Virus record (IMG/VR): IMGVR_UViG_3300031992_000080
Coordinates: 1-64,000 of that record
Reading direction: 5' to 3' (one strand)
DNA from: a virus
Taxonomy: Duplodnaviria > Caudoviricetes
DNA length: 64,000 nt
Below are positions 3,728 through 29,952 of this stretch, in pieces (the stretch's first letter is position 1; each line of letters begins with the position of its first letter). The position numbers and the translations under genes are program-made. Under the pieces are notes generated by a model, which worked only from the letters and a program-made list of their open reading frames with translations, did no database searches and was not told the origin of the DNA.

Positions 3728-4050
3728 TTTCTGTCCTCCCCTAGCGCGGCGCTGGCCTCGCGTTGCATCCCTGCGACATCGGCGCGCAGATAGTCTGTCA
3801 TGTCGGCGTGCTTGTAGATTTGCTCTAGCGTCTCAACCGTTCGCCGTACGATGTCGCGGAGGCGGTCGCGCCCCTCCTGCGTGCGCTCGTTCACCGCATC
3901 CACGATCTCGCGCGCCGTCCGCTCGTCCAGCCCCTCCGCGACGAAGAAGCCGTTGCGGTCGAGGATGGACCAGAACTCGCGGCGCAGACGTCCGCGCTTG
4001 CCGTTGTCGCGCCCTTCGGCTCGCCACGGCGTCGGATGTTGCGCGCTCAT
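3724..4050 (-). CDS. Hypothetical protein, paralog-like to 4047-4499
   Basis: TPWR...IVDAVN...RDRLR motif shared with the neighbour. Confidence 0.65.
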   Translation of the reverse strand: MSAQHPTPWRAEGRDNGKRGRLRREFWSILDRNGFFVAEGLDERTAREIVDAVNERTQEGRDRLRDIVRRTVETLEQIYKHADMTDYLRADVAGMQREASAALGEDRK

Positions 4051-4499: not shown

Positions 4500-4702
4500 G
4501 AGTATTCCCTTGCGATGTTTTGAATGTGCTCGATGCAATCGCGCCAGTTCTGTTCGTCAGCCCCATTGCAGATGTCGTAGATTTTTTCCATAGCCTCCTT
4601 GACTTCCTCAAGCTCGTCCTCTTTGTTTTCGAGCCGGTCCGTGATGAGGTCAATGTATGCGAGGATGGCATCCCGCGCTTTGTCGATGTCTTTGTCTAGC
4701 AT
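4496..4702 (-). CDS. Small coiled-coil hypothetical protein
   Basis: ATGA coupling, GGAGG RBS. Confidence 0.55.
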   Translation of the reverse strand: MLDKDIDKARDAILAYIDLITDRLENKEDELEEVKEAMEKIYDICNGADEQNWRDCIEHIQNIAREYS

Positions 4703-4899
4703 TTCGTTTCCTCCTTCTGTTCTTCGCCCGGATCGTCCCACGCGGGGGTCTGGGGCGTGATGGGCTGGTAGCCGCAGGAGCTGCATGGTTGGCACTTCGG
4801 CTCGAAGAACAACGGGCCGACTGGTTCTCCGGTCGGGTGTCTGCACACATCGCCGAAGTAGCGGTCGAGCCAGCGGCAGTCGGTCGGGTCTGGGTTCAT
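4696..4899 (-). CDS. Small Cys-rich hypothetical protein
   Basis: C..LD....C...C..C..C; coupled start. Confidence 0.5.
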   Translation of the reverse strand: MNPDPTDCRWLDRYFGDVCRHPTGEPVGPLFFEPKCQPCSSCGYQPITPQTPAWDDPGEEQKEETKC

Positions 4900-5096
4900 T
4901 TCACGCCCTCCTTGTCTCCCGCGCTGCGGTTCCGCGCGGTCCCGATGTAGTTCCTGATGTCGTCGAGGCACCTGGCGCAGACGTTCTTCACGGTCGTTGC
5001 TCCCCAATGGAACGGGTGAAGTTCAATGGGGCGCAGGGCGTTCTTGTTGCGGACCTCGATGCCGCAATGGTCGCAGTAGTGTTTCGTGACGGTCAT
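4896..5096 (-). CDS. Small Zn-ribbon protein
   Basis: CDHCG...CARC. Confidence 0.65.
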   Translation of the reverse strand: MTVTKHYCDHCGIEVRNKNALRPIELHPFHWGATTVKNVCARCLDDIRNYIGTARNRSAGDKEGVK

Positions 5097-14704: not shown

Positions 14705-14734
14705 AATCTACCATAGGTGTGTTCCACCTGTCAA
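14705..14734 (-). promoter_or_regulatory. Sigma70-type leftward promoter
   Basis: TTGACA-18-TAGATT with TG extension; the operator lies in the spacer. Confidence 0.7.
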
Positions 14735-14810: not shown

Positions 14811-15041
14811 ATGTTGTTCGGATGTTTGTTGTTCGCCGGATTGTTCCTCTCGCTGATCATCCATGAAATCAAGGCGAAGGTTTGGCAGGAGGGACGCGGA
14901 ACGAATCCGAATCCGGCTGACAAACGGAAGAATCCATACGCGAACGACGAAGCATTTAACTTCAAATTCGGGTTCTGGCTTTATTTCGGATTTCTGATCA
15001 TAATCCTGCTTGGTCTACTCGGCTTCGTTGAGGACGATTAG
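14811..15041 (+). CDS. Lone rightward small two-helix membrane protein
   Basis: Hydrophobic N- and C-terminal segments; AT-richer than neighbours. Confidence 0.55.
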   Translation: MLFGCLLFAGLFLSLIIHEIKAKVWQEGRGTNPNPADKRKNPYANDEAFNFKFGFWLYFGFLIIILLGLLGFVEDD

Positions 15042-16168
15042 TTCTCGTCCGGCAGGTCGTCGAGCTTGTCCGGAGGGACGAGGATTTCCGGCGGCATGAC
15101 GCGCGCGTCCTCGGCCTCTTGTTGCGCGGAGGCGCCTGCTTTCGGAGCGGCCAGTCCGCACGCTTCGTCGAACCAGCTTGGCATGCCCTGGATGTTGAAC
15201 ACGATCGCCGTGCCGATGTTCGCGCCCTTCGCCGCTTGCGTGGCGCTCGTCTCGGCCGCTTTCCTTGCCGCGCTCACGGCGGCCGCCCCCTCCGGGTCGG
15301 CGCGCTCCAGGGCGAGTTCCAGAAGTTTGCTCTCGCGCTTTACTTGCGTCCCGATCTGCCCGTCCTCGTCTTTCGCCACGCGGCCGAAGACCGGGATTTC
15401 CTCGCCCTCGAGGACGCGGCGGCGCAGTTCGTCCTCGTAGAGCTGCTTCTGGGCGATCTGCCTCTGTTCGAGCGCGAGGTCGTAGAGCTTCTGCAGGCCG
15501 TCCGGGTCGGACTTGGCGAGCAGCCGGAGGCGCAGCATGGTGAGCCCGGCATGGTGTTCGACCTCTTCCGTCGGAAGTCCGCGAGCGAGCGCGCCGATAC
15601 CCTGCAGGATCGCCTGCTGGAAGCGGGCCAGGTGAGGTGCAAGGCCGTAGTTGCGGCGGTCCTCCAGGTTGGGGCCCGACGGCTCCTTCTTGTTGCGAGA
15701 GCCTTTGCCGTCCGCGCCGGCGCCGTTTTCCCGGTCGAGGACGAGAGAGGCGATGAGGTCGGCGGCGGTGTCCACGTCTGCCTGCTCCCCCTGCGTGTTC
15801 GGCTGGGGCCACTTGTCGAGCCATTCCGCAAGGCGGGCCGGCAGGGCGAGCGCCGTCTGCGCCTCCTTTGCAAGCCCGGTGTCGTCGAGTTGTTTCACGG
15901 GGACTACCTTCTGTTTCATGTGGCCTAGCTTCCAACGTTGGTATTTGATCGCCTCGTCCGTGTCCGCGTGACCGGGCGGCGGGTGGTATTCGGGGTTCGT
16001 CCGGGGTTTGATCCCTTCGCTCTTGTTGCCGAACTTGCGCTCGGCTTCGCGCGCTTTGTCTTCCTTGCGCGATTTCTTCCATGCGCGCCGGCCGCGCTCC
16101 ATCGCGGCGGACTGGTGGCGGTCGATCTGGTTGGTTGTCTTCGGGCGGCGCCCTTCGTGCGTTCGCAT
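15038..16168 (-). CDS. terS: Terminase small subunit-like protein
   Basis: YEDELRRRVLEG...PVFG......IGT..KRESKLLELALERADP resembles the TerS signature LEDEA.RRA.EG...YSD.LL..LL. Confidence 0.65.
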   Translation of the reverse strand: MRTHEGRRPKTTNQIDRHQSAAMERGRRAWKKSRKEDKAREAERKFGNKSEGIKPRTNPEYHPPPGHADTDEAIKYQRWKLGHMKQKVVPVKQLDDTGLAKEAQTALALPARLAEWLDKWPQPNTQGEQADVDTAADLIASLVLDRENGAGADGKGSRNKKEPSGPNLEDRRNYGLAPHLARFQQAILQGIGALARGLPTEEVEHHAGLTMLRLRLLAKSDPDGLQKLYDLALEQRQIAQKQLYEDELRRRVLEGEEIPVFGRVAKDEDGQIGTQVKRESKLLELALERADPEGAAAVSAARKAAETSATQAAKGANIGTAIVFNIQGMPSWFDEACGLAAPKAGASAQQEAEDARVMPPEILVPPDKLDDLPDEN

Positions 16169-16206
16169 GGCGGGAGAGATTCTAGCGCAGGGCAACTATT
16201 CGCCAC

Positions 16207-16236
16207 TTGACTTCCGGCAGCCGCTGGTTGTAGTAT
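16207..16236 (+). promoter_or_regulatory. Sigma70-type rightward promoter
   Basis: TTGACT-18-TAGTAT with TG extension. Confidence 0.5.
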
Positions 16237-16303
16237 CCGCCCCGTCGCCGCAAAGCGGCGTGAATAGAAACATGTGTTGTTGCTAAAACGGCGCACAAAA
16301 GGC

Positions 16304-16339
16304 AAGCCGCCCCGGACGAGCGATCATCCGGGGCGGCTT
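16304..16339. terminator. Intrinsic terminator hairpin at the end of the early operon, possibly bidirectional
   Basis: AAGCCGCCCCGGA-10 nt-TCCGGGGCGGCTT; T-rich run on the minus side. Confidence 0.8.
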
Positions 16340-16362
16340 CCTTGTTGCGGGCTTTGTCTGGA

Positions 16363-16620
16363 TCAGCCGATGCCGTGGTAGCCCTCCCACTTTGCGGCCT
16401 CCTCCTCGGTGACCTCCTCGATCATGCGAACATGATACATGGGGTTGACGAGGTTGATCTGCCCGTATGGCGTGCCGTCCTCCCCGACCCAGACCTGGAG
16501 CCCGTAGTTCGAGGCGGGCGAGTTGCGGGTGGAGTAGACGCGGATATTCACGCCGTCGAACGTGGTGAGCACGGCTTTGTAGCGCTTGCCCATGTCAATG
16601 TCTGGAATGATCGGATTCAT
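16363..16620 (-). CDS. Hypothetical protein
   Basis: 85-aa ORF with AAGGAAG RBS. Confidence 0.7.
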   Translation of the reverse strand: MNPIIPDIDMGKRYKAVLTTFDGVNIRVYSTRNSPASNYGLQVWVGEDGTPYGQINLVNPMYHVRMIEEVTEEEAAKWEGYHGIG

Positions 16621-16662
16621 CTTGTTGCTTCCTTTGGTTTTGGTTGTTGTCGTTGCGTTCGT

Positions 16663-17004
16663 TCAGCCGAATTGCAGGCCGCGCGTGTGCAGGGCGTTGA
16701 TTGCGTAGCGGACAACATCTGCAATCCCGACCTTGTTGCGTCTGGCAATCCGTTCAATGATCTCTTTGTCTGCGTCGGACACGCAGATTGCCGTTAGTGT
16801 CCGGCGCGATTGTTGCACGGCAATCTTGCAGACCTTCTCGGATTTCTTGTCAATGATGTTGATCGCGACGCGAATGAGTCCGGCGGCGTCAGCTCCCATT
16901 TTCTGAAGTTCGTCAAAATTCGTCTTCTCGTCCGGCGAGAGGAGGAAGTTCACGTAGCGGGTCTTGGTTCGCGGTTTTGGCGTTGTTCTCATGGCGGTTT
17001 TCAT
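16663..17004 (-). CDS. Tandem RHH/CopG-like DNA-binding protein
   Basis: Two beta-helix-helix units (YVNFLLSPDEK...AGLIRVAI; AICVSDADKEIIERIA...IADVVRYAI). Confidence 0.65.
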   Translation of the reverse strand: MKTAMRTTPKPRTKTRYVNFLLSPDEKTNFDELQKMGADAAGLIRVAINIIDKKSEKVCKIAVQQSRRTLTAICVSDADKEIIERIARRNKVGIADVVRYAINALHTRGLQFG

Positions 17005-17031
17005 ATTATGTCTTTCCCCTTTCTATGTCAA
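17003..17031 (-). promoter_or_regulatory. Sigma70-type leftward promoter
   Basis: TTGACA-17-TAATAT (overlapping CATAAT). Confidence 0.6.
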
Positions 17032-17083
17032 GCGCGCCGGGGCGGCGGTTGCCCGCGCGCCCCTTGTTGCGTGCGCTTGTTGC

Positions 17084-17383
17084 TTATGACGGCGATCCGT
17101 GGAGCGGGTCTGGGCCGCTGATCTTCCGCTTGAATCCATCCCATGCTCTTTTGGCAAGCTCAGGCATGGCTTGTTGCAGGTCGGTGAAACGGACTGTGAT
17201 CGTCGGCCTACCTCCTTTGAAGTAGAGATAGACCGTCGCATCTTGCGGCCTCACCCAACAGCTCTCCGACACCTCCGGCCAACCAATCTCGTCCGGCTCT
17301 ATGTCAACTTCCGTCCCTGGTTCGTCATGCGAGAAAAGCCCAAGTTGCCCGTGCCATGTGCGGATGATTGATTTGATTTTCAT
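17084..17383 (-). CDS. Hypothetical protein
   Basis: Start MKIKSII after GGAGG. Confidence 0.65.
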   Translation of the reverse strand: MKIKSIIRTWHGQLGLFSHDEPGTEVDIEPDEIGWPEVSESCWVRPQDATVYLYFKGGRPTITVRFTDLQQAMPELAKRAWDGFKRKISGPDPLHGSPS

Positions 17384-17385
17384 GG

Positions 17386-17697
17386 TTAGTCCTCCTTGTT
17401 GTTGTTGTTGTTGTTCGTATTGAAGTTGTTGTTCGTCTGGAATTGGACATGACAATCGGCCAGTCTTTTCGTGAATAATCTCATTCGTTCTTCCGTTTCT
17501 CGTTCTCCGCACATGGAACGGACGATCATTCTGTTTCTCGGTTCTGCCGCATCCTCTCTCTGAATGGGAGCGAAATCCGCTTCCCATAGGTCTGCCGCAG
17601 AAGTCCCGACGAACATTTCGTCAAAGATTTCTCCGGCCTGTCTGAACGCAGGATCGTCACGGAAATCAAACGTCATTGTGGTTGTTGTCTTGCTCAT
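17386..17697 (-). CDS. Hypothetical protein with poly-Asn tail
   Basis: ORF; the AAC repeats also precede the next RBS. Confidence 0.6.
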   Translation of the reverse strand: MSKTTTTMTFDFRDDPAFRQAGEIFDEMFVGTSAADLWEADFAPIQREDAAEPRNRMIVRSMCGERETEERMRLFTKRLADCHVQFQTNNNFNTNNNNNNKED

Positions 17698-17954
17698 TTG
17701 CGAGTCTCCTTGTTGTGCTTCTTGTTCATGACGGCGTTCGTCTGGTCGGGCTGAAACTTGGCGAGGCAGATCGCGCGCGTCGGGATGCAGAACCGCGCGC
17801 AGTTTGAGTCCGTCCCGTGGATCATGTCGGGGCGGATTTCTGCGAGGTCTTCCGCCCGCCGCACGGCAACGGAAAATCCGTTCGCGAGGTAGATGGAGAG
17901 CTGATTTCCTTCGGGCCAGTTGGCGAGGAAGGTCTGGATGTGTTTCGGGTTCAT
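17694..17954 (-). CDS. Hypothetical protein
   Basis: AAGGAAA RBS; ATGA coupling. Confidence 0.65.
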   Translation of the reverse strand: MNPKHIQTFLANWPEGNQLSIYLANGFSVAVRRAEDLAEIRPDMIHGTDSNCARFCIPTRAICLAKFQPDQTNAVMNKKHNKETRK

Positions 17955-18022
17955 GGTTGTGGTTTCCTTTGTTGAGTGCGCCCCGCCGTCATGGCGGGGG
18001 CTTGCTTGTTGTCGGTTGCGGC

Positions 18023-18565
18023 CTAGCGGATCGGGCGTCCGTAGCAGTCCTTTCCGTCTTGCGCGGCATTCCGCGCCTTCTCAATGTCCGCGAGGTCGTC
18101 AAGCCCCCACGGGAAGGCTTCGTATGCGGCGCGCGAGACTGGGAAAAGCTCGCAGAGCTTATCTGCGGCGCAATGATAGAGGGTGCTCACGATCGCTTTC
18201 GCTTCCGTCTTTTCGTAATCGTCCGTCTCGCAAGACTGGTAGTTGTAGCATCCAAGAGCCTTGAGCAAGAAGCCGATGCCAGTAAGCCCGTTGAAGTCGG
18301 GCGCGCCATCGTTGACTTCCGCGAGGGAACCGGGCTTGATTCTGTCGCACCGGGTGTCATAGTGATACTCCGGCGCGGATTTGTTCTCGTTGTAGCGGAA
18401 ATTCACGGAGCGGTAGTTTTCGTTCCACAGAATCTGCCCGATCTGGTCTGGGTCTTCTTCGGCGCAGACGAGTTCGCCGTTGTTGTTGATTGCCCGGATT
18501 CCAAAGTGCTTCGCCGCAGAAACGAGGAAGTCAATGTGGGCTTTGCTTACGATCCATGCGCTCAT
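18023..18565 (-). CDS. Conserved mobile-element hypothetical protein
   Basis: MSAWIVS..HID.L...LW.EN..SVN.RY.E...L....Y.YQSCE pattern. Confidence 0.75.
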   Translation of the reverse strand: MSAWIVSKAHIDFLVSAAKHFGIRAINNNGELVCAEEDPDQIGQILWNENYRSVNFRYNENKSAPEYHYDTRCDRIKPGSLAEVNDGAPDFNGLTGIGFLLKALGCYNYQSCETDDYEKTEAKAIVSTLYHCAADKLCELFPVSRAAYEAFPWGLDDLADIEKARNAAQDGKDCYGRPIR

Positions 18566-18610
18566 GGTTTGTGTTCCTTTCTTTGTTGTTGGTTGTTGGT
18601 TGGGTGGTGG

Positions 18611-18853
18611 TTAGTGCTTCGGTGCGTAGAGCTTGCAGAGTTCGTTGAATTCCTCCGGCGTGAGCGGTTCGTCCGGCGCGTCCGTGTCGGTGTAGGTCAC
18701 GCCGCACTCAAGGTTCTTGAACGCGTCAACGGCGCGATCCCGCTCCTCTCCGTCCGTCCCAGCGATCCACTCCATGAGGAAAGCGCGGTATTCGCGCTTG
18801 GTCTTGAAGAGATGTTCTTGCCCGTGGGCTTTGATTCCTATTTTCTTTTTCAT
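18611..18853 (-). CDS. Hypothetical protein
   Basis: 80-aa ORF. Confidence 0.65.
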   Translation of the reverse strand: MKKKIGIKAHGQEHLFKTKREYRAFLMEWIAGTDGEERDRAVDAFKNLECGVTYTDTDAPDEPLTPEEFNELCKLYAPKH

Positions 18854-18859
18854 GTGTCC

Positions 18860-19072
18860 TTATGCGTGAAAGAGATCATCCATCGCTTCGCGGATCACCG
18901 CGTTCACCGCTTCAGAGATTGCGAGAGCGGCGCGAAATCCACCCTCGTTCATGCCGCTCAACTCGTCACCGATCATGTTGTTCATGGTTGTGATCGCACG
19001 ATCCAGTCCCTGCCAGTAGGCTTTTCTGGCGGTCTGGTCTTGTCTGATTTTTGCCTTCATTTCCGTTGTCAT
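18860..19072 (-). CDS. Hypothetical protein
   Basis: AAGGAG RBS. Confidence 0.65.
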   Translation of the reverse strand: MTTEMKAKIRQDQTARKAYWQGLDRAITTMNNMIGDELSGMNEGGFRAALAISEAVNAVIREAMDDLFHA

Positions 19073-19105
19073 GGTTTGTTCTCCTTGTTGTCTTTGTTGC
19101 GCGCC

Positions 19106-19525
19106 TTATTCGGCGGCTCGCTTGCCGAGTTCAAATCCGGCGGCTTCCCCGCGCGCGTCTTTCCACCGCCCGACAACCTCCGCGAGTTCGTCCTTGTTGG
19201 TGACGAGTTCGCCCCAGAAGTAGACGCGGCTTGCGCTTGCGTTCGCTTCAATGTTGAGCGCGTCAAAGTAGGCTACGCGGTCGGGACTGTCCAGATTGTA
19301 TGGGTCAAGCCCCGCTTCCTCTGCGACCTTGTAGGCGGCATTGAGCGCGAGATCGTTAAAGAGCGCGTTGCCGACGGCATCGTAAGGCGGCGGGAATTCC
19401 TCTAGTTTCTCCGCGACGAGATCGGGCGTAATGTCCCCGCCCCATGCGCGCGCCCATTCATCAAGCGCGGCGGTGTCCTCACGCCCCAAGCCGAGGGCGA
19501 GACTGATTGCGGTTTTCGTGTCCAT
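19106..19525 (-). CDS. Acidic hypothetical protein
   Basis: AAGGAG RBS; D/E-rich. Confidence 0.7.
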   Translation of the reverse strand: MDTKTAISLALGLGREDTAALDEWARAWGGDITPDLVAEKLEEFPPPYDAVGNALFNDLALNAAYKVAEEAGLDPYNLDSPDRVAYFDALNIEANASASRVYFWGELVTNKDELAEVVGRWKDARGEAAGFELGKRAAE

Positions 19526-19580
19526 TGTTCTTCTCCTTGTTGTTCTGCCGCGCGGGATGTTGGCGGCGTTTGTTGTTGTT

Positions 19581-19643
19581 GACTTCCCGCGACACGCCCC
19601 TGCGTGTTTCGGCGCGTAGTCGGCGCGCCATCATCGGGCGGGA
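19581..19643 (-). ncRNA. Hammerhead ribozyme, type I topology, variant core
   Basis: 5'-UCCCGC CCGAUGA U GGCGCG CCGACUA CGCGCC GAA ACACGC AGGG GCGUGU C GCGGGA AGUC; three 6-bp helices, GUC site at 19591/19590, loop II GACU complementary to 3' AGUC. Confidence 0.8.
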
Positions 19644-19658
19644 GGGGCGTATCGTGTG

Positions 19659-21176
19659 CTAGGCGGCAAGGCTCCTTTCCAGTTGCTTGCGGTGTTTGCG
19701 GAACAGTTCGGCAAGTCTCTGCGCAACTTCGCGCGCGTCTGCGGGCGGCGTTGTGTTCTTTCGGGCGTAGCATTGCTTCACCTTCCATCCGTCCCCGATC
19801 TCAATGTCCACTCGCCCTTCGTCCTTGCCAGCAAGGGCGAGACACACGCAGTTTTGCGCGGCCATGTTCGCGGAGTAGGATCCGCCGCCAATGCAGTTGC
19901 CCATGTTGTTTCCTTCGCGCAAGAATTCATCCTGCGAGGTGAGCCAGACGATCTGCCAGTCTCCGAGATTGAGCTTATTTTCGTTCTTCTGGACAAGCGC
20001 GCGAAGCTTCTCCACGAATTCCGCGATCAGCGCGTCCCGCTCCGCTTGCGTCCGCGCGTAGATTGCGCGTTGCTTTTCAAGCTCCTTCTCCCTGCGCGCG
20101 TTCGCACGCGCCCATTCGCGCTCCCGCCGCCGCATTTCGCGCATCTGCTTCTTGTGGCGAATGCGTTCCGCTTTCTTGCGCGCTTCGTAGAACGCGGCGA
20201 AGTCGGTCGGGTAGGCGGTGCAACGGGCGCGCAGGTCAAGCCCTTCAAGCTTCGCGTTCGTCATGGCTTCGCAATAGCGCCCCGCGTCAATGCCGTGCTT
20301 CACGCAGTAGGCGTAGGCGGCGCGGATCGGGATTTCGGTCGGGCGAGACTGCCGGACGGCGGAGAAGAACACGCGCGGCGCGTTCCTTGCGCGTTCGCGC
20401 TCCTCCACATCCGCAAGGGTGCGCTTCCCGCTCCGGCTCATCCACACTAGATCGTTCCAGTTGTAGCGCGTGGCGAGTCCGGGATTCTGGATCAGCAGTT
20501 TCATCAGCACCTTGTTGCGGGCGAGTTCCGCACATTTCTTCGGGTTGCGGACGGGAGAAAAGCGGTAGGCGTTGAAGAGTCCGGCCTTGACAAGAAGCTC
20601 GGTCTTCGGGTCTTTGGCGTAGGCGTAGAGGATTTCCGCCAGTTGCTTTGCGTAGTTCGGGCAGTAGTTAGGCCAATGCTCCGTTGCGAGGAGCGCGGGA
20701 TCATCTGCCGCAAGCGGCTTCCACCCGCAGTAGCGGTAGCGGGAGCGGGCGAGGAGGTCTGCGCGGGCGAGGCAGTCGGACGGCAAGGCCATCGTCACGC
20801 CGTTCCAATCAAACCAGTTGTCCTCATCATCTTCGCGCCACGCCTGGTGGCAATAGTAGCCGGAGCAAGTCTGGTAGATGTTGTGCTTCGTGTTGTAGGC
20901 AACATTCCAGTCCACACACCAACCCGCAATCCCCTTCCAGTTGAGATCGTGGATGTAGATTCTGCCCTTCGCCGGGTTGAATTCGGCAATGGGCTTGACC
21001 TCCTTCTCTCCCCTGCGGCTTGCGACCGTGACGAGTTCCAGTCCGTCACGCCCCACCTTGCGGAAAAGGGTTGTGAAGATCGTTGTCCTGCTTTTGTCGG
21101 GAATCTTGACTTTCTCCCGATATTCGCGCGCCGCTTTCGTGACGGCGCGCAGTTCGGTCTTGTTGAGTTTCTTCAT
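19659..21176 (-). CDS. pcfJ: PcfJ-like protein
   Basis: C-terminal WLTSQDEFLREGNNMGNCIGG.Y...IEI...W.V.Q...R.N; paired with PcfK. Confidence 0.85.
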   Translation of the reverse strand: MKKLNKTELRAVTKAAREYREKVKIPDKSRTTIFTTLFRKVGRDGLELVTVASRRGEKEVKPIAEFNPAKGRIYIHDLNWKGIAGWCVDWNVAYNTKHNIYQTCSGYYCHQAWREDDEDNWFDWNGVTMALPSDCLARADLLARSRYRYCGWKPLAADDPALLATEHWPNYCPNYAKQLAEILYAYAKDPKTELLVKAGLFNAYRFSPVRNPKKCAELARNKVLMKLLIQNPGLATRYNWNDLVWMSRSGKRTLADVEERERARNAPRVFFSAVRQSRPTEIPIRAAYAYCVKHGIDAGRYCEAMTNAKLEGLDLRARCTAYPTDFAAFYEARKKAERIRHKKQMREMRRREREWARANARREKELEKQRAIYARTQAERDALIAEFVEKLRALVQKNENKLNLGDWQIVWLTSQDEFLREGNNMGNCIGGGSYSANMAAQNCVCLALAGKDEGRVDIEIGDGWKVKQCYARKNTTPPADAREVAQRLAELFRKHRKQLERSLAA

Positions 21177-21186
21177 GTCGCACCTC

Positions 21187-22188
21187 CTAGAAATCAAAGA
21201 GGGTCATCTGCGGGTCGGGCTTCTTCGGCGCGGGCTTCGGGATCACGGGCGGTTTGTAGTTGCCGGACGGCGGTGTGTAGGGCTTGGGCTTCGGCGTCGG
21301 CTTCCACTCGCAGTTGAGAGAGTCCTCCTCAAAGTAGTGCATGAGTTCGCAGAAAACATCCTCGTCCTCCGCGAAGTATCCGCGCGCGCCCTTCTCGGCT
21401 TTTTTCTGCGCCCATTCGTAGAGGTGATTCGCCGCGCCTTGCAGTGTTTTCTTTCCCTCTATCTTCGCGCGGAGTTCTGGGCTTGCGTTCTTGTCAAAGT
21501 AGGCTTTCAGCCGCTCTTCCATGTGGTTCGTGGCTTTCCACTCCCACTTCGGCGGCTTCTCCTCCTCCGGCTTGTCGGCGGGCTTCTCGTCCGTCTTGTC
21601 CTCGCCGTCCTTGTTGTCCTCCGGCTCGGCGGGATCGGGCGGCGTGTTCTCGCCGTCCGGCTTCTCGGCGGTCTTCTCTTCGCCGCCGAAAACGGACGGG
21701 AGGTTTCTCTGCAACGCCGTGTCAAGAGAGATGTCTCCCCGCTCGTCATTGGTCAGCGGACGGATTGCGACTTCGCCGGAGTCAAGGATCGTCACTTTGT
21801 CCTCGCCGTCCGTGCAGTAGTCCCGCTCGTTCTCGTCATCGTAGACTCGCCATCCGTGCGACTCCGCGACCTCCATCCAGTTGCTCGGCGTGTCCCCGCT
21901 CTCGTTGAGCCAGTCCGCAAAATCCTGCAAGGTCTTGATCTCCGGCGCGGTCTTGTTGTCGGTCTGCGGCGCGTTCTGCGCTTCGGGCGCGGGCGCGGTA
22001 TGCTCCGGCTCGGCGGCGGGTTTGGCGGGCGCGGGTTCGTCCGGCTTCTCGTCCGGCTTCGGCGCGTCCGTGGTCTGCGGCGCGGGCTTCATCTGCGCCA
22101 TCATCTGCGAGACTGCGGCGAGTTTCGCCGCCATCTCTTGTTTCATGCGCTCAAGCTCCGCAAGCGCGTTCTGTGCTTCTTCGTTCAT
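21187..22188 (-). CDS. pcfK: PcfK-like (AcrIIA9 family) protein with long N-terminal extension
   Basis: KKTLQGA..HLYEWAQKKA.KG.....DEDVF..LMHYFEED...QMTLFDF. Confidence 0.8.
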   Translation of the reverse strand: MNEEAQNALAELERMKQEMAAKLAAVSQMMAQMKPAPQTTDAPKPDEKPDEPAPAKPAAEPEHTAPAPEAQNAPQTDNKTAPEIKTLQDFADWLNESGDTPSNWMEVAESHGWRVYDDENERDYCTDGEDKVTILDSGEVAIRPLTNDERGDISLDTALQRNLPSVFGGEEKTAEKPDGENTPPDPAEPEDNKDGEDKTDEKPADKPEEEKPPKWEWKATNHMEERLKAYFDKNASPELRAKIEGKKTLQGAANHLYEWAQKKAEKGARGYFAEDEDVFCELMHYFEEDSLNCEWKPTPKPKPYTPPSGNYKPPVIPKPAPKKPDPQMTLFDF

Positions 22189-22221
22189 GGGGTTTTGCCC
22201 TTGTTGTTGTTCTTGTTGTGT

Positions 22222-22307
22222 GGCTTGCCATCATCGGCGCGCGGGTTGCCGTCCCTGCGCGGACACGCGCCCCGCCGGAAAGGACGGCGGCGGGGGCGTG
22301 TTTCGGC
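22222..22307 (-). ncRNA. Hammerhead ribozyme, type II topology, same variant core
   Basis: 5'-GCC GAA ACACGC[CCCCGCCG..CGGCGGGG]C GCGUGU C CGCGC A GGG ACGGCAA CCC GCGCG CCGAUGA U GGC; GUC site at 22262/22261; helix II only 3 bp. Confidence 0.65.
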
Positions 22308-22311
22308 TTGT

Positions 22312-23148
22312 CTACTTCGCCGCCCCGCCCTCCTTCTTCTCGCCGTTGTTGCGGATCGCGTCTTGGATCGTCTGCGGCGCGCCCTTCGGCGTGTGCGCGC
22401 CGGAAATGATCTGGAAGATGCCGTCGCGCTCCTCGGTGCGCGTCTCCTCCATCTCCATCAACTCCCCGCCGTTGGCTGTGAGCTTCGCCGCGTCCTCGTC
22501 CCCCATCGTCATGCACTCAACGATGGCGGCGAGACTGGCGCGCGTCCATTGCTCTGCGATTACGCCGACGAGCGCAAGGTCGGGAATGCTCGTTGTCTCG
22601 CCATCCGCGTTGTGTCCGGCGAACACCGCCGCGCCCGCAATCAGCCGTTCGCGTCCGGCGTTGAGGAAAAGCGCAGTTCCGGCGGGGTTGACTCCAGAAA
22701 CATCCCAGAATGCGTCCGCAATCCACATATCGCAACCGCGCCCGATGTCAACGCGATCAATCATCGCGCCGATATGTCCGCGCAAGTGTTCGTAGGTCTG
22801 CCCGCGCGAGACTGCCCACAACTCCAAGCGCGTCTCCGCGTCTCCGTCCTTGTTCTCCGTGAACGGAAACGCGGTGAGGAGCAGGGCTTTCTCGTTGTCT
22901 TCCGTCCGCAGGGGATGCCCCTGCGCGAAAGTCCATGCGATTGCGGTCTTGAAAAAGTCCTTGCCGACAAGCCGCGCTTGGATTGCGCGGCAACGCGGAT
23001 CGTGCGCGTCCGGGTTTTGAAGAATTTCGGAGGTGTAGATTTCGCGCCGGAGCAAGCGCGGCGCGTTGTTGTTGTTGTTTTTCATGGCGTTTTGCCTTTC
23101 GGGGTTGGGGTTTCGTGAAAATGGTGGGATTGCGGTATTGCGGCACAT
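22312..23148 (-). CDS. DUF3846-like protein
   Basis: HLRGHIGAMIDRVDI....DMWI......VNPAGT.L......IAG.AVF.GHNADGETTSIPD. Confidence 0.6.
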   Translation of the reverse strand: MCRNTAIPPFSRNPNPERQNAMKNNNNNAPRLLRREIYTSEILQNPDAHDPRCRAIQARLVGKDFFKTAIAWTFAQGHPLRTEDNEKALLLTAFPFTENKDGDAETRLELWAVSRGQTYEHLRGHIGAMIDRVDIGRGCDMWIADAFWDVSGVNPAGTALFLNAGRERLIAGAAVFAGHNADGETTSIPDLALVGVIAEQWTRASLAAIVECMTMGDEDAAKLTANGGELMEMEETRTEERDGIFQIISGAHTPKGAPQTIQDAIRNNGEKKEGGAAK

Positions 23149-23168
23149 GGCTTGCAGGCTCCTTGTTG

Positions 23169-23249
23169 CTAGTTGTTGATCCCTGCGGCGGCGGCGTGTA
23201 GAATCACGGCGGCGGCGGTGTAGATTGCGGCGAGAATCGCGGCTTTCAT
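23169..23249 (-). CDS. 26-aa hydrophobic peptide
   Basis: Manual translation MKAAILAAIYTAAAVILHAAAAGINN; fills an intergenic gap; A/C-rich leader. Confidence 0.4.
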   Translation of the reverse strand: MKAAILAAIYTAAAVILHAAAAGINN

Positions 23250-23273
23250 TGTGTTGTTCGTGTTGGTTTCCGG

Positions 23274-24053
23274 TTAGTCCGCATAGTCCTCTGTGTAGGT
23301 CTGCGCGGGGTTGTAGATGTTCGTGCGGTCGGCGTAGTGGCTCGGCTTGGTGCGGAAATATCCGCTTTCGTCCGGGCGGCGCGTGATCGGCTTCGCGCCC
23401 GCTTTGATTCGGTATCCGAACGGGCTAGACGGATCGGGAATCGGGCGGACGCGCGCTTGCATGAATCCGCATTCTTCGCCCGTCTTTTCTAGCTCAATCA
23501 GAGAAAGGCTCTTGCCCGTATCCTTCAAAACGCCGTAGAAGTCATAAAAAGTCATGGAATAATGGAAGTGCGAAACAATCACTTTGCCCGCAAGGCTCTT
23601 CGCCTTGTTGCCGTCCGTCTCCGGCGGCTCTGGCGGCGTGTTCTTCGGCTCGGTGGCGCGCTCGTCCTTGTTGCGTTCTGGCGCGGGATCGTGCGGCGGC
23701 GTGTTCTCCGGCTTCCCTTCGCGTGCGTCCGGCGTGTCTGTAAATAAGTCCATTTGCCCGGCGCGCGGAAAAATCTCGGTCTGCCAAGTGCAAGGCGCGA
23801 ATCCCGCGCGCGTCTGGCGCGCGAGACTGCCGCTTGCGATTGCGGCGCGCAAGTAGTCAGCTTGTGCGTCCGTGAATTCCGGCGCGCGGTGCGTCTGCGC
23901 GTGCTTATCTGGCATGGGGTTGCCGAAAAGATCAACGGCGGCGGCGGGCGTGGTGTGCGCGCTCGTCGGCGTTGTCGCAATGGCGGCTTGGATTGCGGCG
24001 GGGTTCAAGGCGGCGGCTATTGCGGCGGCAATGGCGGCTTGCGTGGTCTGCAT
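23274..24053 (-). CDS. Hypothetical protein (Ala-rich N-terminus, SH3-like-looking C-terminal domain)
   Basis: GKVIVSHFHYSMTFYDFYGVLKDTGKSL.L.EL. Confidence 0.7.
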   Translation of the reverse strand: MQTTQAAIAAAIAAALNPAAIQAAIATTPTSAHTTPAAAVDLFGNPMPDKHAQTHRAPEFTDAQADYLRAAIASGSLARQTRAGFAPCTWQTEIFPRAGQMDLFTDTPDAREGKPENTPPHDPAPERNKDERATEPKNTPPEPPETDGNKAKSLAGKVIVSHFHYSMTFYDFYGVLKDTGKSLSLIELEKTGEECGFMQARVRPIPDPSSPFGYRIKAGAKPITRRPDESGYFRTKPSHYADRTNIYNPAQTYTEDYAD

Positions 24054-24073
24054 GGCGGGCGTTCCTTTCCGGG

Positions 24074-24496
24074 CTAGGCGGTGGCTCCGTCCGTGAAGCG
24101 GAGAATGTCGGCGGCGCGCTCGTCAAGTCTCGCGGCGCGGTTCACTTTGTCTGCGGCGTTCTGCGCGTCTGTGCATTCCGCCAAAACGAAAGCACCGGGC
24201 GCGGGGGCGGTGTTGTATCCCGTCCGGTCGCGGTCAATGATGAGATACACGGCGAAACGCGCGCCGGAATCGGGCGCGGTGTGCTCTGGCTCAATGGTGG
24301 CGGTTGTCCGCGTGCCGTCCGTGTGGTAGTCCCGGAATCCGGCAAGGTCGGCGGCGAGTTCGTCCGGCGTGGCGGCGGCGAGTTCGCGCGCGTATTGCGT
24401 GGCAATCTCCTCGCAAAACTGCGCGCGGGCGGCGCGGCGTTTCGTCTCCGGCGAGACTGCGGCGGGCGTGGGCGTGGGCGTGGCGGTGGTGTTCAT
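24074..24496 (-). CDS. Hypothetical protein
   Basis: GAAAGG RBS. Confidence 0.65.
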   Translation of the reverse strand: MNTTATPTPTPAAVSPETKRRAARAQFCEEIATQYARELAAATPDELAADLAGFRDYHTDGTRTTATIEPEHTAPDSGARFAVYLIIDRDRTGYNTAPAPGAFVLAECTDAQNAADKVNRAARLDERAADILRFTDGATA

Positions 24497-24527
24497 GGTT
24501 TTTTGCCTTTCGTGTTGTTCTGGTGGA

Positions 24528-25385
24528 TCAAGCGGCGGTTGCGTGGCGGATGATTCTGGAAATTCCGGATATGATTTCCGCTTGCATTTCGCGCGGGCTT
24601 GCGGTAAATGGAATGTAGATCGTTTGTGCGGGGTCTAGTCCAAGTGCCGCGCAAGCGGCGGTTGCCCCGATTGCATGGCAACGCCCGCTTGCGCTGTCAA
24701 AGTCCGAACCAGTCACGGCGTGAAGGTCTTGCAAGTCCATGTGTCCAATCCTGCGGGTCACTTCGGGGCGGGTTGCATACCATACGGCGGAGAGGTCTAG
24801 CGGTTCGCCGTGGCGTTTGGCGGGATAGTAGCTTGCAACTTCGCGGCAAGGGCGGCGGGTTTCAACGGCGTTCTCAATCCATAGGGCGGTAGAATATCCT
24901 CGGCGCTCAAGCGCCGAAACGGCGGCGGCGGCTGTCGCGCCCCGCTTCTCAAAATCAGTTAGCGGGGCGGTGCATGGGAGACAAGCGGCGAAGATGATAG
25001 TTGCAAGTTTCGCGGGGCGTGGTTGGCGGCGGCGACGCGTAAAAAAGCGCGCGTCTCCGTTTCCCGTCATAAAGTCCAGTAGGCGGGCGGGGTCTAGTGT
25101 CTCTCCGTCCTCGGCGTGTTGCCACTTCGCGCGCGTGTCCGTTCCGGTGATACCGTCTTCAATCTGGGCGGCAATCGTTTCGGCAAGGCGCGGGATTTTC
25201 GCGCTTGGCTCGTCCGTGGCGAGTGCGGGCACGGCGGCGGCAAGGGTATTTCCGTAGAAATTGCCCCTGCGGTTGCCTAGCTCGGCGGCATAGCGGGAAA
25301 TTTGGCTTGTTCCGCGCGCCTTGTCAAGCGCGTTTTGGACGAAATCGGCGGTTGCCGGGAAAATCCGTGTGAATGGTTCGGGCAT
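24528..25385 (-). CDS. vWA-like partner of the AAA+ ATPase
   Basis: G..LD..R.L......FF......TII.AAC......F...G.TA.A.V..LE..GY...LW; directly downstream of the AAA+ gene. Confidence 0.55.
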   Translation of the reverse strand: MPEPFTRIFPATADFVQNALDKARGTSQISRYAAELGNRRGNFYGNTLAAAVPALATDEPSAKIPRLAETIAAQIEDGITGTDTRAKWQHAEDGETLDPARLLDFMTGNGDARFFTRRRRQPRPAKLATIIFAACLPCTAPLTDFEKRGATAAAAVSALERRGYSTALWIENAVETRRPCREVASYYPAKRHGEPLDLSAVWYATRPEVTRRIGHMDLQDLHAVTGSDFDSASGRCHAIGATAACAALGLDPAQTIYIPFTASPREMQAEIISGISRIIRHATAA

Positions 25386-25401
25386 GGCGTTTTCTCCTAT
25401 C

Positions 25402-26535
25402 CTAGCGGGTCGCGGCGATAAATTCCTTGCGCTTCTGTTCTGGCATTCCTTCGGAAAAATCGTCCAGAATTGCGCGCGCGGTCTTGAAAAGTCCGGCGGC
25501 GGCAAGCTTTGAATAGTCAATAACCGTCCGGGTTGAAAAGAAAGTGCGGGTTATGTGGCGCGTTTCAACGGCGCGGCGCGCGGTGTCTCGCGCGTCAATA
25601 ACGGCGGCGGCTTTCGCTTCGTCTGCCGTGATGGCGAGCGCAAGGCGCTTTTCAAGTTCGGTATCGTAGTTGACTGGAAGATAGCGGAAGCGGTTTAAAC
25701 TGGCGGAGTCAAGGGCCGTCCTGCCTGTGTAGTCCTGTGTGGCTCCGTGCCCGGTGGTGTTTCCTGCGGCGAGAATGTAGGCCTGCGGATTCTTCTTGAT
25801 CCTGCCTAGGATCGGAAAGGAAAGCTCGCCGTTGGCAATTGCCGAATTGACGACAATTGCCGTTTGCGGATCGGCGGCGTCCAGTTCGTCAAATAGGAAA
25901 ACTCCGCCATTGCGATAAATGCGCGTGAATTCGCTTTCGTGGAACGAAAACGCAAGTTGCCCGTTCTCGGCGGGCTCTGGAATGAGTTTCCCGAAAATGT
26001 CGCTTGCGGAAACTTCGCCGGAAACGGAGAGACTTCCAAAACGCGCGCTTTCGTCCATGTCCGGGAAAAGGACGGCGGCGGCTTGGCGCGCAAGGTAGGT
26101 TTTTCCGCTCCCTGTCGGGCCGTAAAGGTAGCAGTTGACTCCGCAACGGATCCGCGCCAAAAGCTCGTTCAATGCGGGGTGCGCGGCTTCCCCTTCGGGA
26201 AGGGTGATTTCCTTCGGGATTTCGGGAAGGTGGAAATGCGTGATGTTCGGCGCGTGGGCGTTGGCGGCGGCTTCGGCGGCGGCGCGCGCGGCCTCGGCGG
26301 CTTCGTCCTTCGCCGTCTGGATTTCGGCGCGCAATGCGTCAATTTGCGGCGCAAGGGCGGCGGCGGCGCCGTTGGCAATGGCGGCAACGGCTCCGGCGGC
26401 GGCGGCAAGGGTCGCGGCGGGATCGGCGGGCGGGGTCTGCATGGTCTGCGGCGGGGTCTGCTTCGGGGCGGTGTCTCCGCCGAAAAGATTGCCCTGGCGC
26501 GCGGCTTCGGTAAGTTCTGCAATGGTGGTGTTCAT
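25402..26535 (-). CDS. MoxR/CbbQ/CobS-like AAA+ ATPase
   Basis: GPTGSGKT, LFDELDAAD, AAGNT.G.GA..DY.GR..LD.ASL.RF. Confidence 0.9.
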   Translation of the reverse strand: MNTTIAELTEAARQGNLFGGDTAPKQTPPQTMQTPPADPAATLAAAAGAVAAIANGAAAALAPQIDALRAEIQTAKDEAAEAARAAAEAAANAHAPNITHFHLPEIPKEITLPEGEAAHPALNELLARIRCGVNCYLYGPTGSGKTYLARQAAAVLFPDMDESARFGSLSVSGEVSASDIFGKLIPEPAENGQLAFSFHESEFTRIYRNGGVFLFDELDAADPQTAIVVNSAIANGELSFPILGRIKKNPQAYILAAGNTTGHGATQDYTGRTALDSASLNRFRYLPVNYDTELEKRLALAITADEAKAAAVIDARDTARRAVETRHITRTFFSTRTVIDYSKLAAAGLFKTARAILDDFSEGMPEQKRKEFIAATR

Positions 26536-26561
26536 GGTGTCGGGGGTGGTTGGTTGGGTGG

Positions 26562-26924
26562 TTAGGCAATCTCCATTTGTTCGGGAGCGATCCTTGCTAG
26601 AAAGCGCGTCCACGCGCAAGCGGCCGGGAATCGTCCGGCGGCGTGGGCAAGGGGGTTTGATTCGGCACGCGCGCAAGCCGCGCGCAATGCGTCAAGCCGT
26701 CCCCTTTGCATTGCGTCTTTAATTTCGTCAACTTCGCGGACAAGGGCGGCGCGCGCGGCGTTCGGGCGCGGCACGGAAAAAGCGGCGTTCTCGCAAGCGC
26801 GCGCCGCTTCCCGGTAGATCGCAAAAACATAGTAGGCGCGAGAGATTCGCGCGGGGGTGGCTGTCTGCACAAGCCGCTTTTTATGTTCGCGGCGCGCGGC
26901 GTTCGGGCGGGGGGTGGCGTTCAT
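26562..26924 (-). CDS. Hypothetical protein, first gene of the leftward early operon
   Basis: GAAAGG RBS just downstream of the promoter. Confidence 0.6.
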   Translation of the reverse strand: MNATPRPNAARREHKKRLVQTATPARISRAYYVFAIYREAARACENAAFSVPRPNAARAALVREVDEIKDAMQRGRLDALRAACARAESNPLAHAAGRFPAACAWTRFLARIAPEQMEIA

Positions 26925-26956
26925 GGTTGGTGCCTTTCGTGGTCTTGCGGGGCGGT

Positions 26957-26985
26957 AGTCTAGCATAGTCCGCTTTTTATGTCAA
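26957..26985 (-). promoter_or_regulatory. Strong sigma70-type leftward (early) promoter
   Basis: TTGACA-17-TAGACT with TG extension. Confidence 0.75.
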
Positions 26986-26999
26986 GCGTTTTTTTATGT

Positions 27000-28250
27000 C
27001 TTTTTTTCTGCGTTGTTCTTTCTTGCGAAACGCCCCTTGTAGAGACTCTTTTCGTAAAATGCCGTTTTCCATTTTAGCCTTTATTCATGGGCTTTTCATG
27101 CGTTCTCGCCTTGCGTTTTCGCGCGTCTCAATCATGCGCGTTTTTCGTAGTTCTAGGCGTGTCTAACAATCGGCTTTTTAGCTTCGTCTAACATAGCTAA
27201 ATCCCGCTAAATAGTAAATCTGTCTTTACAATTGTTTGGCGCGTCTAAAGCATGGTCTGGCGGGGTTCGTCCGGCGGGGTCTGCTGGCGTTCCGGCGGGG
27301 CGGTTCTCTCGCTCGTTCGTCCAGCGTTCTCCCCTCCCCTCGCGCCGGGGAAGGTGGGAGCGGGGAAGGGGGTAGGGGGTAGGGGCGGGGGGTGGATGGG
27401 GGTAGGTAGCAGGGCAACGGCAACGGATCGGAGTAGGCGTGTAGGTAGGTAGGTAGGTAGGGCGGTAGCAGGGTAGCAGGTGGCGCGCGCGGGGACGGCA
27501 ACGGCTGGATCGGGGCGGGGAGATGGGGCAAGGCTCGTCAAGGCGCGGCAAGGCTCGTCCGGGCTTCATGCGGGTTTCTGTCTAGCGGTCTGGAAGGGCG
27601 GCGGGTAGTCTGGCGGGATTGGGGGGAGGGCCGCGCGCGGTGCGGTGTGTTGGCGTTTTTCGGGGCGCGGGTCTATGTCGCATAATCCCGCATTCCGGCG
27701 CTTATAAACTCGCCATGCGTGCGGCGGATTGCGGGCGGGCGGGCGTCCGGTGGGACTGTTGCGGGCCGTCTGGGTATCCGTCCGGCCTGCCCCGTCGGGC
27801 CGTCGGGGCCGTCCGGCGGGGGTTGTTGCGGCGTTTTTAAGCCGTTTTTCGGCAAAAAACACGCCCCGCAAAATTATAAGTATTGATTTTTCAATATGTT
27901 ATGCGGATAATGGGGAGGGTTGAAAGCCTTTCTGGAAGGATCAAAGGAAGGCGCGCGGGCGGGAATGAGAAGGGAGGGGAGGACGGGCAAGGCGGGCGGC
28001 ATGGGGGAGCGGGAAGGGAGGGAGGAAGGGAGGCACGGCTACCCCGTCCCCCTCCCCGACCACACCGCCGACCGCCGCCCCGCGCGGGTCCTGCGGGGGA
28101 CTTTCTCGCACACTGAGGTCGAAGTTTGAAAAGGAGCTACTGCTTGGGACGGGTGGGTCGTGTGGGCGCACCTGCGAGGGCGCGCGCGTGCGGGTGCGAG
28201 GTTGGTGTCCGGATTTTTTTCGGGAATGGTTGCCGTGGTGGATACTGTTT
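27000..28250. other. Non-coding inter-arm region, candidate genome terminus or packaging region
   Basis: No credible ORF; AT-rich patches, G-runs at 27347-27402, (GTAG)5 at 27441-27460, palindrome TATTGA-TTTT-TCAATA at 27881-27896, purine-to-C-rich switch near 28035. Confidence 0.5.
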
Positions 28251-28254
28251 TGGC

Positions 28255-29952
28255 ATGGGGAACCAAGCGAACAGAGGGCTGCGGCGAACGGCTGCGGGGA
28301 CGCGGAAGGATCGCGTGGAGCGGTCGACGCGCGTGATTGGATACGTGCCGACGCCGACGGGGCTGCGGTTCCACAACAGCCGTGCGCTCGTGAAGGGTGC
28401 GATGGGGCCTGTTGGGAGCGGCAAGTCGGTATTCTGCTGCGAGGACATCTGGATAAAGAGCTGCACGCAGGTGCCGATGGCGCAGATCGACCCGGCGTGG
28501 GGGATGCGGGTGCGATACAGCAAGTGGCTTGTGATCCGGAACACGTATTGGGACTTGCAGCAGACGACGATCAAGACGTGGCTGGACTGGTTTCCGCAGA
28601 CGAAGATGCGGGAAAGCCAGCCGTTGGGCGGTGTTCTGGAGTTCGAGCATCCGAGCAACGAGCGGCTTCGCGCGGAGGGGCGGGAAGACGAATGCACGGC
28701 GGTGCGGATCGAGCTGGTGTTTCTGGCGCTGAACAAGGAAGAGCAGGTGCGGCACCTCAAGTCGCTGGAGGTGTCCGGGGTGTGGATCAACGAGGCGAGC
28801 GAAGTGCCGCTCAAATACGTGAGCCGTGCGTTCGAGCGAACGGGGCGTTTTCCGAGCAAGAAGGCGGGCGGGCCGTTCAAGAACCTGGGGATGATCATGG
28901 ACACGAACCCGCCGAGCGACACGGGGTGGTGGTACCAGCTTGCGGAGGTGCGGCGGCCGCAGGGCTACGAGTTCTTCCGGCAGCCGCCGGCGGTGCTGCG
29001 GCGCGAGAAGGGTGGCCGGATCTGGTACGAGCCGAACAAGGGGCAGGATCCCGGGATTCCCGCGGCGGAGAACGTGGAGAACCACAACGAGGGGTGGGAA
29101 TACTACATGCGGCAGACCCGTGACGGGGACCATGCGCGGATCAAGGTGTTCCTGATGGGGGAATACGGGACGACGGTGAGCGGAAAGGCGGTGTATCCGC
29201 AGTATTCGGACGAGGCGAACTACCTCGACGAGACGCCGGAGCCGTGGTGGGGGCTTCCGCTGTTCATGGGGACGGACTTCGGGAGGACGCCGGCGACGGT
29301 GCTTTTGCAAGTGCTTCCGTCCGGGAAGATCGTGGTTCTGGACGAGATATGCGGGGAGGACATGACGATCGGGGAGTTCTGCGAGCAGCTTCTCCTTCCG
29401 CGTCTCATCACGAAATACCGGTTTGCGGAGGGGATGCGGGTGATGAACTTCGCGGACCCGGCTGGGGCGAAGCCGAACGAGACGGACGCGCAGGGCGCGA
29501 TCTACCGGATGAACGAGCTGGGGATTCCGACGGTGCCGTGTCCGGTGACGGGCAACAGCCCGCTGCTGCGGATCGAGGCGGTCGCGAGCGCGCTTCGGCG
29601 GCGGATGGACGACGGGAGCGCGGGCCTGGTGCTTTCGCGCAACTGCCGGCGGCTGCGGGAGGGTTTTCTGGGGCGGTATTACTACAAGACGGCGGCGAAT
29701 TCGGACGCGGCGGACGAGCGCGTGGCGGCGAAGCCGGACAAGAACATGTTTTCGCACCCGCACGACGCGCTGCAATACGGGGTTTTCGGGGCGACGCACC
29801 AGAGCGGGGAATCGATGTTCGACGTGAGCGGGCGAAGCAACCGGCTGTGGGTGCCGGACGGATTCGGAGGCTACCGGCTCTCGGGCCCGGTGCCGACGGC
29901 GGGCGGCGCGTGCGGGACGGAAGCCCGCATTTCCATGGCGGGCTTCTGCTGA
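28255..29952 (+). CDS. terL: Terminase large subunit
   Basis: GPVGSGKS Walker A; GVWINEASE Walker B; DTNPP; GTDFG RNase-H motif; HPHDALQY. Confidence 0.97.
   Translation: MGNQANRGLRRTAAGTRKDRVERSTRVIGYVPTPTGLRFHNSRALVKGAMGPVGSGKSVFCCEDIWIKSCTQVPMAQIDPAWGMRVRYSKWLVIRNTYWDLQQTTIKTWLDWFPQTKMRESQPLGGVLEFEHPSNERLRAEGREDECTAVRIELVFLALNKEEQVRHLKSLEVSGVWINEASEVPLKYVSRAFERTGRFPSKKAGGPFKNLGMIMDTNPPSDTGWWYQLAEVRRPQGYEFFRQPPAVLRREKGGRIWYEPNKGQDPGIPAAENVENHNEGWEYYMRQTRDGDHARIKVFLMGEYGTTVSGKAVYPQYSDEANYLDETPEPWWGLPLFMGTDFGRTPATVLLQVLPSGKIVVLDEICGEDMTIGEFCEQLLLPRLITKYRFAEGMRVMNFADPAGAKPNETDAQGAIYRMNELGIPTVPCPVTGNSPLLRIEAVASALRRRMDDGSAGLVLSRNCRRLREGFLGRYYYKTAANSDAADERVAAKPDKNMFSHPHDALQYGVFGATHQSGESMFDVSGRSNRLWVPDGFGGYRLSGPVPTAGGACGTEARISMAGFC

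Follow-up and report, generated by a model that had tools for sequence, protein, structure and literature searches.

Hammerhead ribozymes that flank genes or small gene blocks in prophages were described in 2011 by Perreault et al., who demonstrated cleavage in vitro as well as in E. coli and proposed that these elements process mRNAs of operon or gene length (PMC3088659); according to a 2019 review, it is unresolved what purpose ribozymes serve between the genes of phages (PMC6765202). Restriction sites are selected against in the first-step-transfer DNA of T5 and BF23 (PMC10644984) and in the region that Autographiviridae inject early (PMC12455610). Here, we analyzed a minus-strand operon (16,363 to 26,985) that carries both hammerheads and a purge of restriction sites, located in IMGVR_UViG_3300031992_000080, an uncultured rumen phage; the window comprises the first 64 kb of this virus record, whose whole genome is 76,109 bp long. 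In phage T7, the host polymerase makes a long early transcript that RNase III cuts between cistrons, and the original prediction for this locus had cast the operon as a host-independent counterpart of that process, with site purging, ribozymes and a second promoter combined on one transcript.

We consider it rather probable that this is an early operon of a rumen phage in which the purge and the two hammerheads, A and B, were selected separately and in which cistrons are insulated from each other. Compared with the clustered prophage hammerheads of PMC3088659 (the A. tumefaciens ardA, C. scindens and A. caulinodans examples), the locus likewise has at least two hammerheads between same-strand genes of a predicted transcript, with types I and II and a stem I/II pseudoknot. 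It differs in that both copies combine the core CCGAUGA with an extra U, in that the phage is probably lytic and podovirus-like and its early block strongly purged, and in that hammerhead B has a competing flank helix. Segmentation of a transcript by ribozymes, which had been put forward as novel, was already reported in 2011 (PMC3088659).

As in T5/BF23 and Autographiviridae, restriction sites are selected against in an early-gene block of about 10 kb, and the rest of the genome keeps them. Unlike in those phages, no A1/A2, Ocr or phage RNA polymerase was identified (no early protein matched an Ocr-like first gene product or a phage RNA polymerase), and at least nine motifs are depleted; the comparison covers site avoidance. 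The likeness to the T7 early region lies in a long early transcript that would run from promoter to terminator and in predicted cuts between cistrons. Unlike in T7, these cuts would be RNA-catalyzed, leaving 5'-OH and 2',3'-cyclic phosphate rather than 5'-phosphate and 3'-OH ends, they would number only two, and there are no long double-stranded sites. The idea of a host-independent T7 counterpart holds as an analogy, but the end chemistry differs and nothing indicates a host lacking RNase III. The operon is a clean new example of the clustered-hammerhead arrangement, neither a new system nor a member of the T7 or T5 type; we found no publication on this combination of traits, or on hammerheads in phages together with PcfJ, in a search that left most subscription journals outside.

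Two hammerheads on either side of pcfK-pcfJ

A descriptor search over the whole genome returned two hammerheads and no more; their C17 residues are at 22262 and 19591. The predicted pair, placed after stop codons and bracketing pcfK-pcfJ, was thereby recovered, with the PcfK match lying below the Pfam cut-off. The features concerned are the following:

22222-22307, minus strand: hammerhead A, type II, core CCGAUGA with an extra U, predicted cut after 22262, 14-bp stem III
21187-22188, minus strand: pcfK-like gene (Pfam PcfK, E 0.0027)
19659-21176, minus strand: pcfJ-like gene (Pfam PcfJ, E 2.4e-12)
19643-19653, minus strand: 11-nt flank able to pair with the 3' strand of hammerhead B stem III
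19581-19643, minus strand: hammerhead B, type I, core CCGAUGA with an extra U, predicted cut after 19591

The fold of hammerhead A starts 4 nt past the stop at 22312 and that of hammerhead B 15 nt past the stop at 19659, and in both, three helices surround the core in one of the valid permutations. The two have stem III and core letters in common, yet are different circular permutations. Stems I and II are in contact in both: loop I GGC pairs with tail GCC in hammerhead A (3 bp, and 4 bp in the relative L391), and loop II GACU pairs with tail AGUC in hammerhead B. A pseudoknot between loops III and I of hammerhead A was rejected, as it is absent in L391 and has no family support.

Both hammerheads have core positions C3, G5, A6, G8, A9, G12-A15.1, U16.1 and H17, which are invariant across 25 aligned copies. 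They depart from U4 (U4C) and from the adjacency of A9 and G10.1, with an extra U before G10.1. An extra residue between A9 and G10.1 is known from chrysanthemum chlorotic mottle viroid (CChMVd), where a U gave a 3-4-fold faster rate (PMC3705267). Each departure is thus known singly from viroid variants and the two are combined here; unlike the viroid variants, the combination belongs to a widespread phage family, in which the extra base may also sit as a bulge after G10.1. We found no publication describing U4C and the extra U together, and an Rfam search of the window and of five related loci returned no ribozyme of another class.

The relatives provide evidence for constraint on these folds. 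In close relatives (L122 and L391 for hammerhead A), stem III gains or loses whole base pairs and stem I is altered on both sides; the L391 copy of hammerhead A is without the extra U, and its L122 copy sits after the stop codon of another gene. Orthologues of hammerhead B are present in L122, L391 and L124 with compensated changes, the L124 core being canonical (U4). Pattern scans, in which the choice of pattern biases the copy counts and a few matches are false, found 171 distinct copies covering all three permutations, with two to six copies at each of 38 other loci. Among the 118 copies with an assignable upstream gene, 96 begin no more than 20 nt after its stop, and the predicted cut lies a median of 45 nt ahead of the next start codon. 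Among 25 copies of type I, 96.9% of cells are paired and 13 of 17 pairs are changed on both sides, a degree of pairing that none of 500 shuffles reached (slid controls, 33-44%). The pseudoknot between loop II and the tail also covaries over classes (GGC/GCC, GACU/AGUC, UGGG/CCCA, CGGUU/AACCG). Because of this covariation and the compensated changes in relatives, the alignments indicate that the ribozymes are under structural selection, and both hammerheads are likely self-cleaving. Judging by the scans, a large phage family commonly carries the core with U4C and an extra U.

Some loci are densely supplied with these elements. G002 has types I, II and III together in one operon, and L146:1945-4982, L350 and L348 have five or six hammerheads within a few kilobases, one at each gene junction; in the latter three, the extra base alternates, being either a U that precedes G10.1 or an A/U bulge that follows it, with constant spacing.

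Avoidance of restriction sites in the early block

The claim that the operon is purged of restriction-modification sites was confirmed by word counts, with two adjustments to its borders: the purge extends about 1.1 kb beyond the first promoter (P1) up to the start of terL, the gene for the large terminase subunit (TerL), and it frays below ~17.9 kb.

16557-28118, no strand: purged block that lacks TCGA, GCWGC and GGWCC and, from 17671 on, ACGT; purge strongest from ~17.9 kb
27001-28254, no strand: non-coding interval from P1 to terL, candidate genome end or packaging site

The site-free spans are 16556-28119 for TCGA, 16217-28278 for GCWGC, 15658-28087 for GGWCC and 17670-28343 for ACGT. Between 17.9 and 27.0 kb, none of these words occurs, compared with 68 (TCGA), 28 (GCWGC), 27 (ACGT) and 18.5 (GGWCC) expected from the rest of the genome. 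CGWCG, CCWGG, GGCC and several 6-mers are also scarce in the block; GATC and CATG are not depleted there. GTAC (21 sites) and CCATGG, unlike the block-specific motifs, are scarce over the whole genome.

Codon shuffling leaves the purge unexplained (TCGA, 0 vs 32; GCWGC, 0 vs 26). Moreover, the real synonymous differences to two relatives, which are not independent of each other, added only 4 sites each compared with ~28 and 48 at random placement, so that in both tests none of 300 simulations was as low; a late-gene control was neutral (0.46). As far as these substitutions tell, site avoidance is under ongoing selection.

An operon matching this one in L318, a relative with 49% TerL identity, has as its first gene ArdC (ArdcN and MPTase domains; 4033-4995, minus strand), and its interval upstream of terL contains repeated GGAAAGATTC words. 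In two related complete contigs, the sequence breaks 930-960 nt ahead of terL, in the matching interval, which local repeats or assembly could cause. The contig depth is 10.9 vs 11.3 in the source run, with no twofold step, but with one flat depth value per contig this is a poor test of a terminal repeat. A 127-nt end repeat in G002 and a near-exact end overlap in G001 were discarded as genome ends, since both look like assembly overlaps.

Operon layout and predicted mRNA pieces

The remaining features of the operon and the two genes outside it that matter here are listed below (ORF, open reading frame; RHH, ribbon-helix-helix):

26978-27000, minus strand: candidate operator overlapping the P1 -35 box, GACATA-N11-GACATA repeat
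26957-26985, minus strand: promoter P1, sigma-70 type, TTGACA-17-TAGACT, TG-extended -10
26562-26924, minus strand: first ORF, 120 aa, no family assigned
25402-26535, minus strand: AAA ATPase (AAA_5 / CobS-like), Pfam E 4.5e-12, phrog_249
24528-25385, minus strand: DUF7192 protein, Pfam E 4.5e-09
22312-24496, minus strand: three ORFs of 140, 259 and 257 aa, the last with a weak DUF3846 match
17084-19525, minus strand: seven small ORFs of 139, 70, 80, 180, 86, 103 and 99 aa, no convincing family
17007-17029, minus strand: GACATA-N11-GACATA repeat over P2, candidate operator
17003-17031, minus strand: internal promoter P2, TTGACA-17-TAATAT
16663-17004, minus strand: gene for a small DNA-binding protein with a likely RHH unit in its C-terminal half and a putative one in its N-terminal half
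16363-16620, minus strand: last ORF, 85 aa, no family assigned
16304-16339, minus strand: intrinsic terminator-like hairpin, 16-bp stem
15038-16168, minus strand: terS-like gene, weak match, directly behind the operon terminator
57559-74187 of the genome, plus strand: 5,542-aa polyvalent protein with ART-PolyVal, ddrB-ParB and LPD23 domains

P1, P2 and the terminator are all present where they had been placed, by sequence match and by conservation: both promoters are unchanged in L122, where the terminator stem is maintained through one compensated change. At the place of P1, L391 has a different promoter of perfect consensus (TTGACA-17-TATAAT). From P1 to the terminator, every called gene is on the minus strand and neighboring genes are -4 to 188 nt apart; other minus-strand terminator-like matches in between are weak and intragenic only. 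This layout suggests that the operon is likely read as a single transcript of ~10.6 kb.

Host RNA polymerase would transcribe the operon from P1, away from terL, and the purge would reflect exposure of the block to host nucleases before the phage protects itself, as for first-entering DNA. The hammerheads would split the transcript into pieces of ~4.7, 2.7 and 3.3 kb (about 4,690, 2,671 and 3,290 nt), and cleavage would thus, as claimed and as the map supports, free pcfK-pcfJ as an RNA of its own. The upstream pieces are predicted to end in a strong helix, the first in the 14-bp stem III of hammerhead A and the pcfK-pcfJ piece in an 11-bp helix with the flank behind the pcfJ stop. At their beginning, the downstream pieces would have a 5'-OH, behind a hairpin in the case of pcfK-pcfJ, and an unstructured leader rich in CAA. 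A 5'-OH end withstands decay that depends on the 5' end, and 3' exonucleases are slowed by terminal helices. Because of these two properties, we favor insulation as the likely effect, with stability and translation set separately for cistrons in a region that often exchanges genes.

Judging from the shared repeat, P2 and the RHH gene would probably add feedback repression of both promoters. The only exact GACATA-N11-GACATA matches in the window are those at P1 and P2, with one GACATA of each partly forming the -35 box, and the repeat is retained in L122; it is a fair candidate for the operator of the gene behind P2. Of the predicted second promoter and twin-RHH gene, P2 stands and the C-terminal RHH unit finds weak backing (Pfam RHH_1, E 0.023, C-terminal half alone; predicted beta-alpha-alpha), and the N-terminal unit is modeled at low confidence, with a predicted local distance difference test score (pLDDT) of 42-50. 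The protein is 98% identical in L122, and a fold search with its model gave no match. Two starts are possible for this gene (16992-17004, minus strand). The upstream ATG, whose ribosome-binding site is inside P2, could be used only on the P1 transcript; the other, ~4 nt past the likely P2 start, would be near-leaderless.

Searches of the ESM Atlas, PADLOC and fold databases yielded no function for the small ORFs, and the PcfJ query had no relative among the viral contigs searched. A possible 26-aa Ala-rich ORF (~23165-23247, minus strand) lies inside the 188-nt gap that precedes the DUF3846-like gene. Short GC hairpins at 17981-17999 and 17054-17075, behind stop codons, without U tails and retained in L122, are possible stabilizers or pause sites.

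The genome record is represented in sheep and bovine gut metagenomes. Its terminase is ~35% like those of BcepC6B-like podoviruses, and on the plus strand terL is followed by portal, capsid and then the polyvalent protein, a podovirus-like gene set; the phage is probably lytic. The polyvalent protein is probably injected and could protect DNA entering later. The early operon is oriented opposite to terL and starts from the 1.2-kb non-coding interval ahead of it. The terS-like gene and terL (28255-29952, plus strand) are divergent with 12 kb between them and the early operon inside, and in the unrelated phages L001/L002, L338, L348 and L364 the hammerhead-bearing operon is likewise divergent from a terminase-like gene. 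A third TTGACA-type promoter (14705-14734, minus strand) would serve the replication and recombination genes, and that kilobase is also poor in the purged words. A relative with 46% TerL identity was binned in a Verrucomicrobia metagenome-assembled genome, a weak hint at such a host.

Weighing the explanations

Several observations count against the reading of separately selected traits that insulate cistrons. Hammerhead A scores 23.4 bits on Rfam RF02276 (Hammerhead_II), where the gathering score is 37 bits, hammerhead B was not reported by the Rfam search, and neither thus reaches the gathering score. U4C alone lowers hammerhead activity in vitro in a viroid, yet works in vivo (cited in PMC3088659). 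For naked hammerhead B RNA, the competing flank fold is favored over the ribozyme (-36.2 vs -29.6 kcal/mol). No anti-restriction gene was identified among the block proteins by Pfam, PHROG, ESM Atlas, PADLOC or fold searches; other contigs run through the candidate genome end; and the GACATA repeat is missing at P1 of L391.

It is improbable that purge, ribozymes and P2/RHH co-evolved as one integrated program to free pcfK-pcfJ, standing in for the RNase III processing of T7 independently of the host. All three traits occur together and are retained in the closest relatives, no RNase III-sized intergenic duplex exists in the operon besides stem III of hammerhead A and the terminator, and four more lineages of the clade (L318, L314/L317, G002 and G003; TerL 49-55%) have hammerheads in the terL-divergent operon. 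However, G002 and G003 combine 3-4 ribozymes with at most 1-3 weakly depleted motifs per 8-kb window, compared with 9 here, and G001 is mildly purged with no hammerhead found. At 41 other family ribozyme loci the purge has no local counterpart (near and far windows of equal size with 2 vs 1 depleted words). A general coupling of ribozymes and purge had at first looked positive (25/55 vs 16/103 loci; 16 vs 1 words), a signal that came from unequal windows and unmatched controls and was gone with equal windows. Furthermore, other lineages of the clade bracket a 582-aa or 301-aa gene behind an AAA-like gene instead of pcfK-pcfJ, and L123 has a distant pcfK-pcfJ pair with neither trait. Hence neither the coupled three-part system nor a special link to pcfK-pcfJ was borne out, and the proposed search of relatives for the same co-location found it kept in the closest relatives and separated in distant ones. 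From this distribution, the ribozymes look older in the clade than the strong purge; they coincide in position since each is part of the early operon.

We regard as equally doubtful that hammerhead B is gated by translation, with the flank helix inactivating it as long as the flank is not covered by a ribosome that terminates on pcfJ; the cut would then report pcfJ translation. Leaving the stop codon and 9 nt unpaired raised the predicted probability of its helices from 0.00 in free RNA to 0.96, and L124 is predicted to have the same switch. Family flanks usually interfere less with their ribozymes than shuffles do (p 1e-9), and that of hammerhead B ranks 4th of 136; we therefore rejected gating as a general family trait and take the flank helix to be a local feature. 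Against gating, the flank resembles a stem III strand of hammerhead A and is maybe a duplication relic, the helix is weaker in L122 and without two-sided covariation, the energy model leaves out the pseudoknot and co-transcriptional folding, and the helix is equally well explained as locking the 3' end that cutting creates (-32.1 kcal/mol). The flank helix may be a gate worked by ribosomes, may lock the cleaved product or may be left over from a duplication out of hammerhead A. The joint reading, in which hammerhead B cuts only on pcfJ termination, inside first-entering restriction-proof DNA and with both promoters repressed by the RHH protein of the operon, has a small chance of being right; if true, it would amount to translation-sensing mRNA processing independent of host enzymes.

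It is very unlikely that cleavage serves to destabilize early mRNA or to excise a piece whose 5'-OH and cyclic phosphate ends are ligated to a circle. Such ends are substrates of RtcB and would suit circularization. For decay, glmS offers a precedent, as its cleavage triggers decay (PMC6765202), but both new 3' ends are predicted inside strong helices here, Perreault et al. sought circles and spliced products and found none (PMC3088659), and on inspection a hybrid ribozyme over the junction would need a 6-bp stem opened. Least credible is an imported module whose word usage and passenger or decaying ribozymes came from another element: early and late genes do differ in codon usage, gene content of the block turns over among relatives and the ribozyme core is non-canonical, but site avoidance is still selected, ribozyme changes are compensated and all three permutations are found in this operon over the clade.

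Phage and host are uncultured, and no new kind of system is implied. With two predicted cuts, a clear promoter and terminator, and natural ribozyme variants in close relatives, the operon is a tidy test case for the purpose of such ribozymes, and the predicted on/off fold of hammerhead B can be tested in a tube. As the core variant falls under Rfam thresholds, such ribozymes are under-counted. The purge, for its part, would mark early-exposed DNA and thus indicate where to seek anti-defense genes still to be identified.

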